A DNA stretch of 61,334 bases from Promethearchaeota archaeon (GTDB lineage: Archaea > Asgardarchaeota > Thorarchaeia > Thorarchaeales > Thorarchaeaceae), in assembly GCA_014728035.1 (NCBI GenBank), contig WJMJ01000045.1, forward strand, positions 1-61,334, in the 5' to 3' direction. Below are positions 539 to 11,497 of the stretch, one piece after another (positions within the stretch are counted from its first letter, which is position 1; every line of letters starts with the position of its first letter). The notes under the pieces were generated by a model, which was given only the letters and a program-made list of their open reading frames with translations, had not been told where the DNA came from and made no database searches. A program made the translations under genes and the position numbers.

Positions 539-2005
539 CTACGTTATTCCGTGTTGGTCGCCTCGTATTTTCCTTCTCAATCGGAGCCTCAAGTCATCCA
601 GTTTTCCAGAAATTTTTCCTTTTTCTTTCCAATAGGGTTGTATCTCATCAAAAGACATGACATCAAAATAGAGTGGACAAGCCCCTGTACAATATTCGAA
701 ATGTTCGCAATTCTTACATCCTTCCGGAGCGAAATCTTTCTCTCTCCAGAATTTTGCTGCTCTTCCATTCCAGACCTTATCGAATCCATCCTTAAGCAAA
801 TTACCAACAGGTTCACTGAAACTTGAACATGGAAGTAGATTGCCTTCTGCATCAACCGATAACAAACCATCACAACACGCACATGCTTTTGCTCCTAATC
901 CATTAGCAATTGGATTGAAGATACAGACCGGGGTTGGAGCATACCATACAAAACTGATTTGGCGTTTGTTAGCTTTTCGTTTCACACGTCTTACAATATC
1001 TCCAATTTCCGAGTATGTTATCATCAACTCATCCCGGAGTTTAGCAGCAGTACCAGTATAGATCACCATGTTCATACTGAAATAACTAAGATCTAGCTCA
1101 TCAACATGAAAATCTACTAATTCCTCCAATTTTTCTGCATTAGGTCTACATATGGTAGTATTACAATGAGTATAGATTTCTGTAGAATGAAGATTCTTGA
1201 TTCCTTGTACTGTTTGAATAAATGCTCCGGATACTCCAACGATGTAATCATGTGTTTCTGCATCAGGCCCCTCTATTGAGACCTGTGCACTATGCAGCCC
1301 AGCATCTACCAACTTCCTTACATAATCTTCATCTGCACATTTTCTTCCATTGGTTATCAGATTAACACGAAGATTTTTCGATTTTGCATAAGCTATTAGC
1401 TCGAAGATGTCTTCTCGTAGAGTTGGTTCACCACCAGTAAAAGATAGACTTGGAACATGAGCATCATCGACGATTATGTCAATGACTCGCTTCACCTCTT
1501 CAGTTGACATCTCTCCAGATTCTCTATAGGGTGAGTAGGCATAACAAAATCTACACTTGTTATTGCATCGGTACGTGACAGCTATCTCACTAAGAACAGG
1601 GTATCGTATCTCTCCAGTTCCATAAGGGATAATCTCTGCTGTTTTGTATGAGTAGATATTATAATTCCCTGCTGTCATACTACTCAGGTCTCCAACAAAG
1701 GCAGCAAGGTCATTTAGAATCGTTTGGCGATTAGCTCCCTTTTGCTTCTCGAATTTCTCCACTACTTCTTCTATTGACTGATTTTCCATCAACATCTTCA
1801 GCATAGTAAGTGCGGTACTATTCAGGTGCATGACCCTATTGGGTCTAAGAATCAGTAAATTGTCCTCTGGTCGCACATGAAAATAATCCCTGATATCATC
1901 AATGAATCCAGGTACCCATGCAAGTTCTTCCATTGTGAAATCATAATTTGGCGGATATTGGTGGGACATATTGATTAGTAAGGTTTCTTTGTCTCTATTA
2001 ATCAT
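539..2005 (-). CDS. Radical SAM/SPASM peptide maturase with N-terminal PqqD-like (RRE) domain
   Basis: CxxxCxxC (CNNKCRFC), FTGGEP, ITNG, SIEG and HDYIVG core. SPASM cysteines in CACCDG..GNLLPC..CKNCEHFEYCTGACP. N-terminal 'HLNSTALTMLKML..SIEEVVEKF..ILNDLAAFVGDL' has the PqqD pattern. The true start may be 1969. Confidence 0.92.
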   Translation of the reverse strand: MINRDKETLLINMSHQYPPNYDFTMEELAWVPGFIDDIRDYFHVRPEDNLLILRPNRVMHLNSTALTMLKMLMENQSIEEVVEKFEKQKGANRQTILNDLAAFVGDLSSMTAGNYNIYSYKTAEIIPYGTGEIRYPVLSEIAVTYRCNNKCRFCYAYSPYRESGEMSTEEVKRVIDIIVDDAHVPSLSFTGGEPTLREDIFELIAYAKSKNLRVNLITNGRKCADEDYVRKLVDAGLHSAQVSIEGPDAETHDYIVGVSGAFIQTVQGIKNLHSTEIYTHCNTTICRPNAEKLEELVDFHVDELDLSYFSMNMVIYTGTAAKLRDELMITYSEIGDIVRRVKRKANKRQISFVWYAPTPVCIFNPIANGLGAKACACCDGLLSVDAEGNLLPCSSFSEPVGNLLKDGFDKVWNGRAAKFWREKDFAPEGCKNCEHFEYCTGACPLYFDVMSFDEIQPYWKEKGKISGKLDDLRLRLRRKIRGDQHGIT

Positions 2006-2087: not shown

Positions 2088-2483
2088 ATGAGTAACGGAG
2101 AGATAAAATTACCCTATGGTACAATCAAATCTAAGAAATTGGTCATGCACTTTAGTGCTTATGATATCGATTTACCTGTCATTGCAGCTGGTATTCGTGA
2201 GAGAATGGACGTTCTCAGGGAGCTAGGTGTATCCTTTGCAGGATTCGGTACAGAAGTTCCAGAAGAGATGACTGAGCAAAGTCCTGCGCTTGTAAAAGCC
2301 TTCTTCGAGTTTGTAGGGACAAGTTCAGATGCAGATGTGATTCTGAAAAGAGCATATCATCTGATTTGGGGTGGTATGATTGAAGAGTTCCCTGATCTCC
2401 TTGAATGGGCAGCTGCTAAATCCGATTTGTCCAATCTAACCTTTGCACAGGCAGATGTTATGCGAGCTCGTAAAGGTGACTAA
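2088..2483 (+). CDS. Hypothetical protein, first gene of the operon divergent from the rSAM gene
   Basis: 131-aa ORF with AGGAG RBS. No recognisable motif. Confidence 0.75.
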   Translation: MSNGEIKLPYGTIKSKKLVMHFSAYDIDLPVIAAGIRERMDVLRELGVSFAGFGTEVPEEMTEQSPALVKAFFEFVGTSSDADVILKRAYHLIWGGMIEEFPDLLEWAAAKSDLSNLTFAQADVMRARKGD

Positions 2484-2498
2484 TGGAAGTAACTGGTT

Positions 2499-2813
2499 AT
2501 GCCTAAAATAGAGGTTTCAGATGTGCTATACGAATTGCTCGAACGACAGGCAAACAGAAGAGAAGCAGAATCAGTTTCTGACCTCGTAAACTCAGTTCTT
2601 ATGAACTATTTACTCAAGCATGATAGAATGGGACAGCTTCATGTTCCTCTACCTACGTTCTTAATGTCAAGTGCAGACACTATTGCTTCAGTCCTAGCCA
2701 CAATGAATACAATAGATTGGTACAACAGTCAAGAGGCAATCGATATCATTTCAGACAATTTAGAAACAGCAGAAAAACTTCTTCGAATAACAGCACAGAA
2801 TCTAACCAAATAA
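2499..2813 (+). CDS. Ribbon-helix-helix (CopG/MetJ-like) domain protein
   Basis: N-terminus MPKIEVSDVLYELLERQA..ESVSDLVNSVLMNYL fits the RHH strand-helix-helix pattern. Confidence 0.65.
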   Translation: MPKIEVSDVLYELLERQANRREAESVSDLVNSVLMNYLLKHDRMGQLHVPLPTFLMSSADTIASVLATMNTIDWYNSQEAIDIISDNLETAEKLLRITAQNLTK

Positions 2814-2836: not shown

Positions 2837-5008
2837 ATGAAACGTCATGTTGTTTATTTAATTGTCCTTTCTCTATTCATATCTGGGATATTTCCTGTTT
2901 TATTTGCTAATCCAGTAGCTTCTCAAGATACAGTTGCAGTGAATGAGAGTATCTATGTAGATGTCTTTGTCTTACCTAATGGACGAATAAACGTCACCTA
3001 TTATATGACCCATCGTGTTGATAGTGGGTCAATCGGTGGTTATGATTTGGTTGGTATCCAAGAGAACGTAATTCACGATCCCAGTCGCTGTTATGTGGAG
3101 ATGGATGGTGATAGACATAATTTGCAGGTCACACCCATCACAGGAGGATTTGGACTTGACTGGACTCCTCGTACTCAAGCGGGAGAAACTGTTCTTGTTG
3201 TTTTCAGTTATTATAGCTTAAATCGAATTGTGGAACGAACAACTGGTACTTTCACATTGGAAGGATCTGGTGAATCTGTCACTGGAGATATGGGCGTCTT
3301 TAATTGGGCACCAGTTCAATGGGAGTGGGATGTGAATTTGTATAATGTTCGCGTGGTCTATCCGATAGAGATGAATTCTGCTTGGATTGATGGTGGAGGT
3401 GGCATTTCTTCAGATGGCGCAGATCATGCTGGATATGTTGTCGATTACCGACAAGGCGTGTGGGATGAGTCTAATAACCAATTTGAGTATGATGAAGACA
3501 ATCTCCTTGCTTATCCGTCGAATCCGTCTGCAAGTCCTCGAAATTTCAGTGTGAGTCTCACAGCTGAGCCAGCTATTGCTTATGATCATCTTCGAATATT
3601 TCATTACACTAACTGGAGCTTCTATGCTGACCATCTTCTTCCAGGCTCCATTGGATATGCTATTGAAGAAAATCTGAATGTATATGCAGAAACGGAATTT
3701 GAACTTGAATTAGACGTATACAACTATGGTGATTTTGAGTTGACTGGAGTTACAGTTGATTATACGATTCCTGAAAATCTAACATTAATCTCTAGTACAA
3801 CTTTGGGGTACCAAGCAACACTTGAAGGAGGAGAGAGCTTTCATATCTCTTATACCATGATTGCTGATAATTTACCCGCGATTCTAAAGGTTACTTTCAC
3901 TATAGCTGCAACAAACCTGAATCAATCAGATTGGGAAACATTCACTGTAAATGTATATGTACAAGAATATATTCCTCCACTGGTTGACGCTGGACTTCTT
4001 ATTCAAATCATCCTATTTGGGCTAGGCGGAATTGCAGTTCTAGGTATTACAGTTTATGGATATCGTCATATCACAAGTGGATATGGTGCTAAATGGGAGG
4101 TTGATGAAACCACTTCTTATGAGAGCCCAACTATCTCCATACAGACTTTTGGCACTCCTGGAGAAGTTGCTGACCTCGATCCAGTTGAATCCGCATTCTT
4201 TGTAAATACTCCTCGTCAGAAACTTGTTGGAATGATTCTGATGTCATGTGTGCGTAAAGGTGCGATTCGAGTTATATCCACAGACCCTCTCAAAGTATCA
4301 GATACAGGAATACGATTCGAAGACCTTACTTACTATGAAGCAGCATTAACTGATTGTATAACAAATAGCGAATTCCAATCTGATTGTCTTGACAATATAC
4401 TGGAGGATTTAGCTGAAAAAGTACAAGAGAAGTCTTGGGATGCTGATTTCGAAGCTACTAAAGAAGCTCACGATGAACGAGTTGAAGGAGCTTGGGAAGA
4501 GTTGGAATCCGAAACAACTGCTGATGGAAGAACAGACTATTACTTCAATAGGACATATCGAAACCGTGGTTGGGCTTGGTATTGGCTATACCAACATCCG
4601 CGACATGATAGCAGGATTGGTGATAGTTTAACTCCATCAGGTGGTACAATTAGCCCACCTGAGATTCCTACGTGGTTTGCTGATATGGCGGATGCTGCTG
4701 GTCATTCTATTACTACTGCTGGTAGAGTGGTCGGCGATGTGGCAGAAACCACTGGAAAAATCATTGGGAATGTAACTAGTACAATAGGTGAAATTATTGG
4801 TGGTGTTGGCAAGATTATTACCGAACCATTGAAACCTATCATTGAAGGCACCAGCCGATGTGTTTCTCATGATGCCTGTCATAGTGCCTGTGTCAGTCAC
4901 GATGCTTGTCATTCAGCATGTCATAGTGCCTGTCATAGTGCCTGTGTCTGCCATTCAGCATGTCATAGTGCCTGTCATAGCGCATGTGTATCTGGTGGAT
5001 ATCGATAA
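2837..5008 (+). CDS. Single-pass membrane protein (DUF2207-like architecture) with C-terminal Cys/His (CHSA)n repeat tail
   Basis: Signal peptide, beta-rich ectodomain, Ig-like segment, one TM (LLIQIILFGLGGIAVLGITVYGY), cytoplasmic 'DLDPVESAFF..LMSCVRKGAI..LTYYEAAL' segment, and tail CVSHDACHSA...CVSGGYR. AAGGAG RBS. Confidence 0.85.
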   Translation: MKRHVVYLIVLSLFISGIFPVLFANPVASQDTVAVNESIYVDVFVLPNGRINVTYYMTHRVDSGSIGGYDLVGIQENVIHDPSRCYVEMDGDRHNLQVTPITGGFGLDWTPRTQAGETVLVVFSYYSLNRIVERTTGTFTLEGSGESVTGDMGVFNWAPVQWEWDVNLYNVRVVYPIEMNSAWIDGGGGISSDGADHAGYVVDYRQGVWDESNNQFEYDEDNLLAYPSNPSASPRNFSVSLTAEPAIAYDHLRIFHYTNWSFYADHLLPGSIGYAIEENLNVYAETEFELELDVYNYGDFELTGVTVDYTIPENLTLISSTTLGYQATLEGGESFHISYTMIADNLPAILKVTFTIAATNLNQSDWETFTVNVYVQEYIPPLVDAGLLIQIILFGLGGIAVLGITVYGYRHITSGYGAKWEVDETTSYESPTISIQTFGTPGEVADLDPVESAFFVNTPRQKLVGMILMSCVRKGAIRVISTDPLKVSDTGIRFEDLTYYEAALTDCITNSEFQSDCLDNILEDLAEKVQEKSWDADFEATKEAHDERVEGAWEELESETTADGRTDYYFNRTYRNRGWAWYWLYQHPRHDSRIGDSLTPSGGTISPPEIPTWFADMADAAGHSITTAGRVVGDVAETTGKIIGNVTSTIGEIIGGVGKIITEPLKPIIEGTSRCVSHDACHSACVSHDACHSACHSACHSACVCHSACHSACHSACVSGGYR
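4859..5008 (+). repeat. Coding tandem repeat, 12-bp unit (tgtcatagtgcc / tgtcattcagca) encoding CHSA
   Basis: Seven CHSA units and two CVSHDA units read directly. Synonymous variation between units indicates protein-level selection. Confidence 0.95.
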
Positions 5009-5330: not shown

Positions 5331-6086
5331 GTGACAGAATCAAGAAAGACAATTTTCCATATGAGCGATATCCACATTGGTGAAGCTGGAGTACGAATAG
5401 AGGATTTCCGTCATATTATTGACTATATTGAGAAAAAGGAAAATGAAGTTACGAATCCTCTATTATTGATTACCGGAGATTTAACTTCCGATGGCCTACC
5501 TGAAGAATTCGAAGCATTTCATGATGTTGTTGATGGAATTGACATTCCCACAATAATTGTCCCGGGAAATCATGATGAACGAAATTATGGGGCAGCACGC
5601 TTTGAAGAATTCTTTGGTTCTCGTTTCAAACGGTTTGAAGACGAGGTTGTTGCCATATATGCAGCAGATAGTGCGGAACCAGATAATGATGCAGGTCACG
5701 TTGGGCGAGCTATGTATAGTGAAATAGAGGATTTCTTCTCTGAAGCACAGGATAAGGTACGGATTTTTGCATTGCATCATCACTTAGTACCTGTTCCTCA
5801 TACCGGCCGAGAATTCAATGTTGTTGAGGATTCAGGTGATGTATTGGGATTACTAACTGAATGCAATTGTCACATGGTCTTGAATGGACATCGTCATGTT
5901 CCATGGATGTGGCATCTGAATGATATGCTTCTATATAATACAGGTACACTTCTTTCAAGACGTATTCGTGGGGCTATTACGCAGGTTCATACACATATCA
6001 ATATCTATCCTGACAGTGTTGAGTTCATAATTCGCGATAAACTTGGTAATGAGAAAAAATTTGCAGAGTCTGACTTGACTTTCTAA
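5331..6086 (+). CDS. Calcineurin-like metallophosphoesterase (CpdA/Icc-like)
   Basis: SDIH, TGDLT, PGNHD, HHH and GHRH motifs. Confidence 0.9.
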   Translation: MTESRKTIFHMSDIHIGEAGVRIEDFRHIIDYIEKKENEVTNPLLLITGDLTSDGLPEEFEAFHDVVDGIDIPTIIVPGNHDERNYGAARFEEFFGSRFKRFEDEVVAIYAADSAEPDNDAGHVGRAMYSEIEDFFSEAQDKVRIFALHHHLVPVPHTGREFNVVEDSGDVLGLLTECNCHMVLNGHRHVPWMWHLNDMLLYNTGTLLSRRIRGAITQVHTHINIYPDSVEFIIRDKLGNEKKFAESDLTF

Positions 6087-6587: not shown

Positions 6588-7808
6588 GTGAATGAAATGG
6601 CAAAAGAATTTGTCAGACTTTGTGGTGAGGTTGGAAACTTTTCTGAGCGAATTACAGGTGTAAGCATTGTTGATGCATATTTCGGACCAGAAGATTTAGA
6701 CCCAAAAAGGCAGAATGAAAATAAAGATGCGGAGGTATTAATTCACGATTTGGATGAGTTCATAGACACTCTGGGTGAGATTGATGAACCCATCCGTAGA
6801 AAGTATTTGCAAGCTGAAGCTGAATCGATGAAGATGACCGTTAAGTGGTTAGCTGGATTAGAAACCAATTACTCAAATATTGTTCGAACAATGTTTAACA
6901 TCGAACCCAAAAAGTTCTCTAAAGGTATTATTGATGCCCAACTTTCTGAAGTAGAAGCTGCACTAGAACCTTTTCCAGGTGTTGATTTAGCTGAGAAAGC
7001 AAGTCTGTTCACTAAAGAAGGAGAAGTACGTGGTAAAGCATTGCGTGATTTCATAGATAACGAATTGCAATCAAAATCTTCCGATGTCGGTCAACTCTTT
7101 AAAGAACGAATCTACTCGCTGATCGGTCGTGATGTGACTGACAATGGCGTGAAATATAATTGTGTGACAGATAAACCTTGGAGTGGATACAACTATTTTC
7201 AGGGCAATTACACATCTGTTAATGAGTTCAATGTTGATAGGCCTATGAATACCGATTCTGCACTTGCAGTGGTATACCATGAATATGAGCATCACGTTTC
7301 CAATCTTTGGCGAGAACGTGCTTATCATGAGGAGGGATTTGTTGAGCTTTCAATAGTTCCCCTTCACACAGGACGATGTGTAATCTCTGAAGGTACTGCA
7401 GATACTGCACGTGACTTTTTGGGAGTTAAGGATAGTAGTGACAAAGTCAAAGCATATGATGCTCTTTACAAACTTCGAAGGATGATTTCAATCAATAGTG
7501 CTATCATGCTAAATCTTGAGAAAAAATCAATTGATGAGACCGTTCAGTATAATGTAGAGAGAGGACTTAGAAGTGAAGGTGCTGCTAGGTCTGGACTTGC
7601 TTTTATTTCTCCTGAAACACGAGATGGCAAGGTGAATATCTGGAGTCCTTATGTATTTACTTACTATATTGGAAGAACCGATTTTGTTTATCCTATTTTT
7701 TCAAAAGCTAAAGAACAAGGCGAGTTAGATAAGTTCTATCAGACCCTTTATCTAAATCCATTTAGTGGATCAAGTGCTACTTGGAAAGAATCGTTTTCTT
7801 GGCTATAG
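6588..7808 (+). CDS. Zincin-type metallopeptidase, DUF885-like
   Basis: HEYEHH (HExxH), downstream ISEGTA glutamate ligand and YVFTYYIG motif. Confidence 0.65.
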   Translation: MNEMAKEFVRLCGEVGNFSERITGVSIVDAYFGPEDLDPKRQNENKDAEVLIHDLDEFIDTLGEIDEPIRRKYLQAEAESMKMTVKWLAGLETNYSNIVRTMFNIEPKKFSKGIIDAQLSEVEAALEPFPGVDLAEKASLFTKEGEVRGKALRDFIDNELQSKSSDVGQLFKERIYSLIGRDVTDNGVKYNCVTDKPWSGYNYFQGNYTSVNEFNVDRPMNTDSALAVVYHEYEHHVSNLWRERAYHEEGFVELSIVPLHTGRCVISEGTADTARDFLGVKDSSDKVKAYDALYKLRRMISINSAIMLNLEKKSIDETVQYNVERGLRSEGAARSGLAFISPETRDGKVNIWSPYVFTYYIGRTDFVYPIFSKAKEQGELDKFYQTLYLNPFSGSSATWKESFSWL

Positions 7809-10442: not shown

Positions 10443-10943
10443 TTGAGAAATGATGTTCTTTTGATACCTATGGACGATATATCTTTCTGTGAACCTGGAA
10501 CAGTTTTCTGTAAAGCCAATAAAATCATGCTACCTGTTGATGGTAGTGATGGTTCTGCACGAGCTGCAACAGTTGCATTTGAGGTTGCTGAACTGACTGA
10601 ATCAAAGGTTTACATCATTCATGTTGTACCAACTTCAATGGTGAAGCAATTCTCATATATATCAGGGTCTGATCATGACGAAACTTTGAGAAAGTACAAT
10701 GAAAAGGGTCGTTGGCTGTTAACGGGCTATAAAGAAGCGGCAGAGGAGTACGGACTGGAAGCCGAAACAATCATTGAAGAAGGTCTTCCATCTGAACGTA
10801 TTATTCGAGCAGCAAGAGAATATGACGTGGACCTCATTGTAATTGGTGTTGAAGGTGCTAGTGGTCAAAAGCGAGCAGGGATGGGCAGTACTACCGAAAG
10901 AGTTGTTTTGGGTTCTCATTGTACTGTTATTGTGGCAAAATGA
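10443..10943 (+). CDS. Universal stress protein
   Basis: IMLPVDGSDGSARA, DLIVIG and MGSTTERVV. Likely start is ATG 10470. Confidence 0.9.
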   Translation: MRNDVLLIPMDDISFCEPGTVFCKANKIMLPVDGSDGSARAATVAFEVAELTESKVYIIHVVPTSMVKQFSYISGSDHDETLRKYNEKGRWLLTGYKEAAEEYGLEAETIIEEGLPSERIIRAAREYDVDLIVIGVEGASGQKRAGMGSTTERVVLGSHCTVIVAK

Positions 10944-10975: not shown

Positions 10976-11497
10976 ATGACAAGCCATTTTAGGTGGCTTT
11001 ACATACAGGTTATCATTATGGTTGAACCGATATATTGTGAACCTGGTAGACTGTTCTGTAGAACAAAAAGAGTGATGCTCCCAGTTGATGGCAGTGAGGG
11101 GTCTGCACGGGCTGCAAAGATAGCTTATGAAATCGCTGAAATGGCCAAAGCAAAATTATTAGTGGTGCATGTAATCAATCTTGGTGCGGTTCAACAAGTT
11201 GCAACCATGTCCGATACTGATATCATTGTGGTACTTCAACGATACATGACTAATGGTCGAACACTATTAGAAAAATATCGAGCTGAAGCAGAGGAGTTCG
11301 GGATAGATTGTGAGCTTGTCCTAGAAAAGGGATTGCCTTCTGATAAAATAGTTCTTCTTGGAAGAAATAGAGATGTAGACATCATTGTTATGGGCTCTGA
11401 AGGAGCAACTGGAGATCGACGTGTAGGTGGAGGACTTGGTAGTTCCACTGAACGAGTTGTTCGTCGATCAAGGTGTCCAGTCCTAGTTGTGAAATAG
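10976..11497 (+). CDS. Universal stress protein (tandem paralog)
   Basis: VMLPVDGSEGSARA, DIIVMGS and LGSSTERVVRRSRCPVLVVK. Likely start is ATG 11018. Confidence 0.92.
   Translation: MTSHFRWLYIQVIIMVEPIYCEPGRLFCRTKRVMLPVDGSEGSARAAKIAYEIAEMAKAKLLVVHVINLGAVQQVATMSDTDIIVVLQRYMTNGRTLLEKYRAEAEEFGIDCELVLEKGLPSDKIVLLGRNRDVDIIVMGSEGATGDRRVGGGLGSSTERVVRRSRCPVLVVK

Follow-up and report, generated by a model that had tools for sequence, protein, structure and literature searches.

What does a strictly repeated, cysteine- and histidine-rich tail do at the end of a large membrane protein of an Asgard archaeon? The question is raised by a 61,334-nucleotide (nt) stretch of DNA from a Promethearchaeota archaeon of the family Thorarchaeaceae (GenBank assembly GCA_014728035.1, contig WJMJ01000045.1, positions 1 to 61,334 of the forward strand), hereafter the window. 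Near its start, a gene encoding a 723-amino-acid (aa) membrane protein that ends in such a tail lies divergently from a gene for a radical S-adenosylmethionine (SAM) enzyme with a SPASM domain. On balance, we think it probable that the tail is a built-in core peptide that stays on the membrane protein and serves as the substrate of the divergently encoded enzyme. That the enzyme targets the tail and not some other region of the protein is an inference, and we propose the type of chemistry and the final function on the same footing. The features at issue are as follows.

539-2005, minus strand: radical SAM enzyme, 488 aa, proposed tail maturase (Pfam matches, Cys motifs)
2837-5008, plus strand: predicted type-I membrane protein, 723 aa, in a single open frame (open reading frame [ORF], AlphaFold 2 [AF2] model, hydropathy)
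4859-5005, plus strand: Cys/His tail of the membrane protein, aa 675-723, the proposed core or substrate region

The tail reads CVSHDA-CHSA-CVSHDA-(CHSA)3-CV-(CHSA)3-CVSGGYR, 49 residues with 11 Cys and 9 His in strict i,i+4 spacing, and the stop codon of the frame is at 5006-5008. Translation of the tail coordinates matches exactly the layout given in a preliminary description of this locus. The source genome carries one copy of the repeat. Of 43 genomes sampled from the source family, 34 have an ortholog of the membrane protein, and among the 30 Thorarchaeota orthologs retrieved, which are 50-81% identical overall, the tail agrees nearly letter for letter (near-identical in 29 copies). Pairwise comparison of 29 Thorarchaeota copies over the 49 tail codons gave 11,294 synonymous versus 310 non-synonymous differences, and the 49 codons upstream of the tail in the same copies gave 8,076 versus 7,267. 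All Cys, His, and Ala positions of the tail are invariant in these copies, each His stands in an invariant H-[SD]-A, and all synonymous codons are in use, so the repeat is old and has been maintained at the protein level. Seven CHSA units were found in 29 of the 30 orthologs; the other one (L029) lacks one CVSHDA-CHSA unit pair. The tail is thus under extreme purifying selection with a fixed unit number and, with its synonymous sites saturated, is among the most rigidly conserved repeats that we have met. The codon counts bear out the earlier claim that the repeat is not just a product of recent slippage. The expectation that unit number might vary between strains found no support, either in Thorarchaeota or in the wider set of 114 tails described below, all of which have 7-9 units.

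Synonymous variation between units, also claimed earlier, stands for the Ser codons (agt, tca, and agc), which differ from unit to unit, but it is tempered by two 42-nt halves, each encoding (CHSA)3CV, that are 90% identical in the window. Tandem Repeats Finder reported periods of 12, 42, and 54 nt in the tail DNA, with 94% matches over 4910-4989. Mean identity of the 42-nt halves is 0.81 within genes versus 0.75 between genes, and mild homogenization of the halves has occurred in some lineages. In the sister genome L002, as in L027, identity between the halves reaches 98%. This pattern suggests occasional gene conversion between the halves despite strict constraint at the protein level.

The tail occurs far beyond Thorarchaeota. 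A search with the tail alone returned 66 bacterial and archaeal proteins, 440-975 aa long, whose C-termini follow the pattern (A-C-H-[SD])n-A-C-V-S-G-G-x-[HR]. The DNA pattern for C-H-x-A-C-H-x-A-C-V-S-G matched in at least 120 species genomes, a recurrence that confirms the tail as genuine and not an assembly artifact. The matches yielded 114 tail ORFs from about 28 named phyla, including Spirochaetota, Planctomycetota, Bacillota, Myxococcota, Acidobacteriota, Thermodesulfobacteriota, Pseudomonadota, Thorarchaeota, and Thermoproteota, and their units are of the form CHxA, with 8-12 Cys in the last 70 residues. Homology between the window protein and the bacterial tail proteins persists when the tail is left out of the comparison, and it covers the ectodomain (aa ~14-220) and the transmembrane and cytoplasmic part (aa ~386-600). 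At least one carrier of the system has been cultured, Desulfobulbus alkaliphilus DSM 24258 (locus L074), and we take most tail-bearing hosts to belong to mostly anaerobic lineages. Several tail proteins and a 102-aa, mostly-tail fragment bear the label PF27846 in the protein database. No stand-alone precursor peptide of ~60-100 aa with the repeat was found, the shorter matches being mostly contig-end fragments together with one 229-aa protein, P0086. This protein has a signal peptide, a different body, a divergent tail of the form (ACH[QNSD])n...CHGSRGWR, and the PF27846 label, and from it the repeat may be carried by further proteins beyond the main family.

The product of the divergent gene exceeds the Pfam cut-offs for Radical_SAM (PF04055; 91.9 bits, cut-off 29.5), for a PqqD-like recognition element (RRE) of peptides made by ribosomes and modified after translation (RiPPs) at aa 52-108 (PF05402; 31.5 bits, cut-off 23.4), and for SPASM (PF13186; 31.4 bits, cut-off 21.5). 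Its CX3CX2C cluster motif is CNNKCRFC at aa 147, and its full SPASM domain has 7 Cys, those of the CX2CX5CX3C motif (CKNCEHFEYCTGAC at aa 430) and the ones upstream of it; both Cys motifs are intact in 79 of 79 enzyme orthologs. By sequence, we assign the enzyme to the radical SAM superfamily, SPASM subgroup with RRE, of the peptide-modifying type. The nearest solved structures are SkfB and PqqE. The residue after CX3CX2C, one of six proximity positions, is Tyr in the window enzyme, Phe in CteB, and Tyr in StsB (PMC10288494). In NCBIfam, the enzyme fell below the cut-off of every model (87 matches, of which the best 25 were examined), and neither TIGR04463 (the CrpC family) nor any CXXX-system maturase model was among those best 25 of 87.

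Coupling between the enzyme and the tail gene was assessed in 114 loci selected by the tail DNA pattern alone, 105 of which had enough flanking sequence to be judged. An enzyme ortholog (330-450 bits, 42-48% identity) adjoins the tail gene in 101 of these 105; the 114 loci divide as follows.

95 loci: enzyme ortholog directly downstream, same strand
5 loci (Thorarchaeota): enzyme ortholog upstream, divergent
1 locus: enzyme ortholog upstream, same strand
4 loci: enzyme ortholog not adjacent
9 loci: flank missing, so that the locus could not be judged

All four exception genomes have exactly one enzyme ortholog elsewhere, beside the gene for a partner protein, X328 (see below), in two genomes and beside a second tail-gene copy in a third. 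Within the source family, both genes are missing in 8 genomes and are discordant in only 2, both of them fragmented assemblies. In a second Asgard family (61 genomes), 7 genomes have both genes side by side, 52 have neither, and 2 have only that for the membrane protein, located at a contig end. Enzyme and tail protein have been gained and lost together in these two Asgard families, to which the reverse check from enzyme to tail was limited. The evidence for a functional link between the tail protein and the enzyme is strong. The preliminary description had offered a multiply crosslinked core peptide as one option for the tail, and genomic context (linkage in 101 of 105 judged loci, joint gain and loss) lends strong support to it.

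The link also persists where the tail differs. In the second Asgard family, the membrane protein has distant homologs, 30% identical over aa 425-557, that end in ...GGCACACACAGCACACAGGGR, a (Cys-Ala)n type of tail with no His, and an enzyme ortholog lies directly downstream of the gene. A 926-aa homolog from a third lineage ends in SCVTHDDCHSACHSACVWSACHSACHSAGGWG, and a CVTHDDCHSACHSACVWSACHSACHSAGGWG tail is likewise seen among distant homologs; an enzyme ortholog adjoins the gene in both cases. The ...GGCACACACAGCACACAGGGR and SCVTHDDCHSACHSACVWSACHSACHSAGGWG variants (loci L152-L155 of the other Asgard family, and L151) have in common Ala-Cys pairs and a terminal Gly-Gly-x cap. A tree of 79 enzymes, which was quick and unrooted, with labels shared by relatives, and is used for description only, has clades that match tail subtypes across phylum boundaries. 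In it, the Thorarchaeota clade lies near a Thermoproteota sequence and the bacterial SDACHSACYVHTACH subtype. Judged from these sequences, the enzyme appears to follow a Cys-rich tail rather than an exact tail sequence.

The protein that bears the tail is predicted to have the following parts.

aa 1-30: signal peptide (hydrophobic segment at aa 3-30; N-terminal helix in AF2)
2927-3967, plus strand (about aa 31-377): beta-sandwich ectodomains (AF2, at aa 33-376)
aa 378-413: single transmembrane helix (hydrophobic segment at aa 378-410; AF2 helix at 385-413)
4127-4201, plus strand (aa 431-455): conserved linear motif just inside the membrane (alignments of 83 and 54 tail proteins)
aa ~445-600: folded cytoplasmic domain (AF2)
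aa 635-662: Gly/Ile-rich, amphipathic long helix (AF2)

A hydropathy scan of the 723-aa protein found two hydrophobic segments only. A signal peptide and one transmembrane helix predict type I topology, which places the tail in the cytoplasm. The AF2 model, built on an alignment of 83 relatives, has a mean score of 82 for pLDDT, the predicted value of the local distance difference test. The score is 39-45 in the tail and below 50 throughout aa 665-720, and hence no confident fold is predicted for the tail, nor does the model bear on helix faces or metal-site geometry there. The score is also below 50 at aa 416-436, so that the linear motif lies partly in a stretch to which AF2 gives no fold. 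Within the motif, P431 and L447 are invariant and G442 and E451 nearly invariant in the archaeal and bacterial alignments; K532-W534-D537-A540-T541 are also invariant or near-invariant in the tail proteins.

Family searches place this protein at a distance from known membrane proteins. Its Pfam matches were sub-threshold only, to DUF11 (aa 281-362) and DUF2207_C (PF20990, aa 446-577; 18.7 bits, cut-off 33); the DUF2207 N-domain (PF09972) was not matched, and there was no NCBIfam match. Among 54 relatives, 14 matched PF09972 at E ≤ 0.01, one of them (P0032) with 26.8 bits against a cut-off of 24.4. TIGR04222 was matched by 7 of the 54 (best 31.4 bits, cut-off 43) and not by the window protein. 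The likeness to DUF2207 proteins in the preliminary description therefore holds weakly, through these C- and N-domain matches. The tail-protein family appears to be a divergent branch of the DUF2207/TIGR04222 superfamily, by remote kinship and not by membership. A Foldseek search with the whole model gave ribophorin I/Ost1 oligosaccharyltransferase subunits as the best PDB matches (E 7.5e-9, with template modeling [TM] scores of only 0.19-0.29). These have the same layout of lumenal beta-sandwiches, one transmembrane helix, and a cytosolic part. The search also returned many immunoglobulin-like proteins at low TM-scores and is taken as a lead only; it hints at a possible fold kinship between DUF2207-like ectodomains and ribophorin I.

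How might the enzyme act on such a protein? The PqqD-like RRE would dock on the cytoplasmic part of the membrane protein, for which the motif at aa 431-455 is a candidate site, and the radical SAM core would then abstract hydrogen atoms within the repeat. The cysteines would be modified covalently, most likely to form a ladder of intramolecular thioethers (sactionine or ranthionine) to neighboring residues. The product would be a rigid tail of fixed size, in which the histidines and any free cysteines could hold metal ions. Cross-linking through the tail cysteines is probable by analogy with CrpA/CrpC and QhpC/QhpD, and the finished tail could have metal binding as its function. The choice of the tail as the target and of thioethers as the product is suggested by the enzyme class (RRE plus SPASM), by cytoplasmic access, by the way in which the enzyme follows differing Cys-rich tails, and by the CrpC and QhpD precedents. 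Strong selection on a sequence for which AF2 finds no fold is expected if a modification or a ligand gives it structure. PapB-type ranthisynthases use C-X3-D spacing, and the Thorarchaeota CVSHDA units contain this spacing.

Several points weigh against this proposal. Gene adjacency shows a functional link and is not proof that the tail is the part modified. Among the best 25 of the 87 NCBIfam matches of the enzyme, the best curated ones were AhbD (152.7 bits) and NirJ2 (146.4 bits), far below their cut-offs, and thioether synthases scored lower still: PapB (NF047865) 90.1 bits versus a cut-off of 340, StsB (NF045574) 96.8 versus 625, and SkfB 81. Because tetrapyrrole models outscore thioether synthases, sequence similarity gives no specific indication of thioether chemistry. 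In the (Cys-Ala)n variant the possible acceptors are limited to Ala, Gly, and Cys, and a thioether ladder would give the invariant His nothing obvious to do. Room is left for a metal site in the product, or for non-thioether chemistry, by that His, by the unvarying size of the tail, and by the lack of an AF2 fold. A third conserved bacterial gene, X328, belongs to the unit, and the proposal gives it no part. Finally, no conserved peptidase or exporter was found: the only conserved neighbors are the enzyme, X328, and the small protein p131, none with a peptidase or transporter match. The system is therefore not a classical released RiPP, and the repeat nearly always ends a protein of 500-975 aa.

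One alternative is that the enzyme does modify the tail, by a chemistry other than thioether formation. Candidates are an anaerobic counterpart of the O2-dependent MNIO (DUF692) reaction, which converts Cys to metal-chelating heterocycles or thioamides; His-centered, three-residue cyclophane C-C cross-links (H-x-A); conversion of Cys to formylglycine; and epimerization. TIGR04222 relatives with Cys-rich tails have been proposed as MNIO substrates, from genome context only (PMC12452194), and 7 of 54 tail proteins have sub-threshold TIGR04222 matches. The invariance of each His within H-[SD]-A, and a similarity to thioether synthases no higher than to other SPASM enzymes, also fit this idea. An O2-dependent enzyme would be unusable in hosts that we presume to be mostly anaerobic, and pairs of O2-dependent and radical SAM enzymes exist for several reactions. 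However, (Cys-Ala)n tails without His keep the same enzyme family, so a His-centered reaction is not the common chemistry. We know of no radical SAM enzyme that makes thiooxazole or oxazolone-thioamide groups, which counts against an MNIO-like product. Of the characterized SPASM enzymes with Cys-rich repeats as substrates, most form thioethers (PMC13692751, PMC10288494). Overall, we regard a non-thioether modification as unlikely.

It is also conceivable, though we would put little weight on it, that the tail works unmodified, as a module akin to metallothioneins or metallochaperones for Zn, Cu(I), Ni, or an Fe-S cluster, bound through the Cys and His side chains, with the enzyme acting on another part of the protein, on X328, on a lipid, or on a small molecule. 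The density and strict i,i+4 period of Cys and His in the 49 residues, the invariant His in every unit, and the lack of an AF2 fold in a model without ligand agree with metal binding, and 8-12 Cys across about 28 phyla would suit a defined metal stoichiometry. The (Cys-Ala)n variant resembles the C-x-C run of metallothioneins, and the authors of the CrpA study likewise suspect metal binding (PMC13692751). Left unexplained are the coupling to an RRE-bearing, peptide-type enzyme, the joint loss of the two genes, and the enzyme clades that track tail subtypes. So is the retention of the enzyme when the tail shifts from (ACHS)n to (CA)n and the rest of the protein has diverged to 30% identity. Moreover, no metal-binding family was matched in Pfam or NCBIfam. 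Metal binding is better placed as a possible role of the tail once finished than as a rival to its modification. The last alternative, that the repeat is an assembly artifact or functionless low complexity produced by neutral slippage, could appeal to the 42-nt period and the near-identity of the halves, but it is refuted by the recurrence of the 49 residues in 29 independent Thorarchaeota assemblies with saturated synonymous change, by the constant unit number, and by related tails that end homologous proteins across the species genomes matched.

Attachment of c-type heme, as read from C-X3-C-H in CHSACH, was also considered and set aside as a principal interpretation: the tail is predicted to be cytoplasmic, the motifs overlap every four residues, and (Cys-Ala)n tails have no His.

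Three further features separate the enzyme gene from the membrane-protein gene.

2006-2087: intergenic region (82 bp) from which the radical SAM gene and the p131-p104-membrane-protein operon diverge (ORF coordinates)
2088-2483, plus strand: p131, a 131-aa, soluble, conserved accessory protein with no Cys
2499-2813, plus strand: p104, a small and variable ORF situated after p131 and before the membrane-protein gene

The divergent arrangement is maintained in Thorarchaeota loci. p131 is encoded immediately upstream of the tail gene, both in Thorarchaeota (66-90% identity) and in 9 bacterial loci with the SDACHSACYVHTACH subtype. Its AF2 model (pLDDT 86) has an alpha/beta domain and a helical hairpin; Foldseek with this model gave no PDB match at E ≤ 0.001, there was no Pfam or NCBIfam match, and the best score in the protein atlas, 0.86, is at chance level. 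p104 is not a constant part of the system: it was detected by tblastn in only 7 of 29 other Thorarchaeota loci (L002-L030), in one Thorarchaeota-type archaeal locus, and in none of the bacterial loci, and it has no Pfam or NCBIfam match.

X328 is a multi-transmembrane protein of ~328 aa whose gene follows the enzyme gene in 80 bacterial loci. It has the motifs yPY.Y.V and ViRQ.Ttk..GyhT and matched no family. Its gene is not in the cluster in Thorarchaeota loci. Elsewhere in the source genome (contig C37, 179687-180658), a 324-aa multi-transmembrane protein aligned with X328 in hhalign (94% probability, E 1.5e-7, over the C-terminal 85 columns) and is a probable distant homolog. The X328-like gene lies 10-27 kb from the enzyme gene in most members of the source family. 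It is largely co-distributed with the enzyme gene: the two occur together in 38 genomes, both are missing from 13, and 10 genomes are discordant. Only 538 nt separate the radical SAM gene from the start of the window, which is a contig end, and contig C37 ends 17.5 kb from the X328-like gene. Because the X328-like gene lies 10-27 kb away on that side in related genomes, C37 may join the start of the window.

Downstream of the tail gene, the window holds other genes of possible interest. Directly next to it, at 5331-6086 (plus strand), is a gene for a 251-aa calcineurin-like metallophosphoesterase that is conserved in many Thorarchaeota loci (61-86% identity) and not in bacterial loci; it scored far below threshold against the NCBIfam "anti-phage phosphoesterase" models (61 bits, cut-off 420). 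A 406-aa protein with a HEYEH (HExxH-type) motif and no Pfam or NCBIfam match is encoded at 6588-7808 (plus strand); it has conserved counterparts close to the system in 10 Thorarchaeota loci, and the genome has a single copy of its gene. At 10443-10943 and 10976-11497 (plus strand), two adjacent paralogous ORFs of 166 and 173 aa have the common motif MLPVDGS-GSARAA...VIGxxGxxG and presumably resemble tandem universal-stress-protein-like genes.

No description of this system was found in the literature searched or in the curated families searched (Pfam, NCBIfam), and the strings CHSACHSA, CHDACHSA, and PF27846 were absent from that literature. RiPP-type radical SAM enzymes are known mostly from small peptides, and very few cases of whole-protein modification have been tested (QhpC, and CrpA in 2026). 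The closest parallel is the CrpA/CrpC pair of Methanococcus voltae, in which CrpC (TIGR04463), an RRE-radical SAM-SPASM enzyme, builds thioether (ranthionine) links into CrpA, a 28.8-kDa protein, within its Cys-rich C-terminal region, with metal binding suspected and no peptide release known (Dieter et al. 2026; PMC13692751). There, as here, the enzyme is encoded beside a large protein with repeated C-terminal Cys motifs. CrpA, however, is soluble, with ten 17-residue repeats and C-x-x-Q/D motifs, whereas the repeat in the window has a 4-residue A-C-H-x period, ends in a GG-x-R/H cap, and is carried by a predicted type-I membrane protein of 723 aa, and the partners p131 and X328 differ from those of CrpA/CrpC. 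QhpD, another radical SAM/SPASM enzyme with an RRE, makes several intramolecular thioethers from Cys to Asp and Glu in QhpC, according to the summary given in PMC13692751. QhpC, the gamma subunit of quinohemoprotein amine dehydrogenase, likewise remains a protein after thioether formation. It is a small periplasmic enzyme subunit with three links and no repeat, and no sequence match to it was made here.

Other systems share single traits with this one. The preliminary description likened the tail to CXXX-repeat radical SAM targets, which are bioinformatically defined and have a C-terminal Cys at every fourth residue. This likeness stands for the period only: TIGR04117 (cut-off 50) models a protein of ~98 aa, and just 4 of 54 tail proteins matched it, at no more than 16.8 bits and over the repeat only, while the window tail did not match. 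Ranthi- and sactipeptide systems (PapA/PapB, CteA/CteB, SCIFF, StsA/StsB) also pair RRE-bearing SPASM enzymes with Cys-rich cores, but their precursors are short and bear leaders, often with a protease or exporter. TIGR04222/DUF2207 membrane proteins with Cys-bearing tails have been proposed as substrates of O2-dependent MNIO (DUF692) enzymes, whose products, the bufferins, chelate copper (PMC12452194). They resemble the present family in being membrane proteins with a Cys-bearing, low-complexity C-terminal tail and an adjoining gene for a RiPP-type enzyme. Their tails, however, are Gly/Ser-rich, with scattered Cys, variable length, and a predicted periplasmic location; they occur mostly in Actinomycetota, and the enzyme is missing in a third of genomes. 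In the present family the tail repeats A-C-H-x exactly, at a fixed length; it is predicted to be cytoplasmic, and it is coupled to a radical SAM enzyme. By analogy, one could speculate that the system is an oxygen-independent counterpart of TIGR04222/MNIO.

The finding would extend radical SAM/SPASM maturation of Cys-rich protein regions. The same modification logic would apply here to a single-pass membrane protein, with a repeat number fixed across domains of life. A broader interpretation, which we advance tentatively and with considerable doubt, is that the tail protein with (A-C-H-x)7-9, the RRE-radical SAM-SPASM enzyme, and polytopic X328 form an undescribed ancient three-part module. 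In it, the enzyme would turn the cytoplasmic end of the whole membrane protein into a new structure of fixed size derived from Cys and His, which could be a protein-borne metal-binding or redox cofactor made without oxygen. Such a module would span about 28 phyla and several Asgard lineages, and, through a ribophorin-like ectodomain, it would couple sensing outside the cell to chemical events within. Should the tail prove to be cross-linked or to form a metal site, it would be a new protein-borne post-translational structure, and a branch of the DUF2207/TIGR04222 superfamily, a large orphan group, would gain a function.

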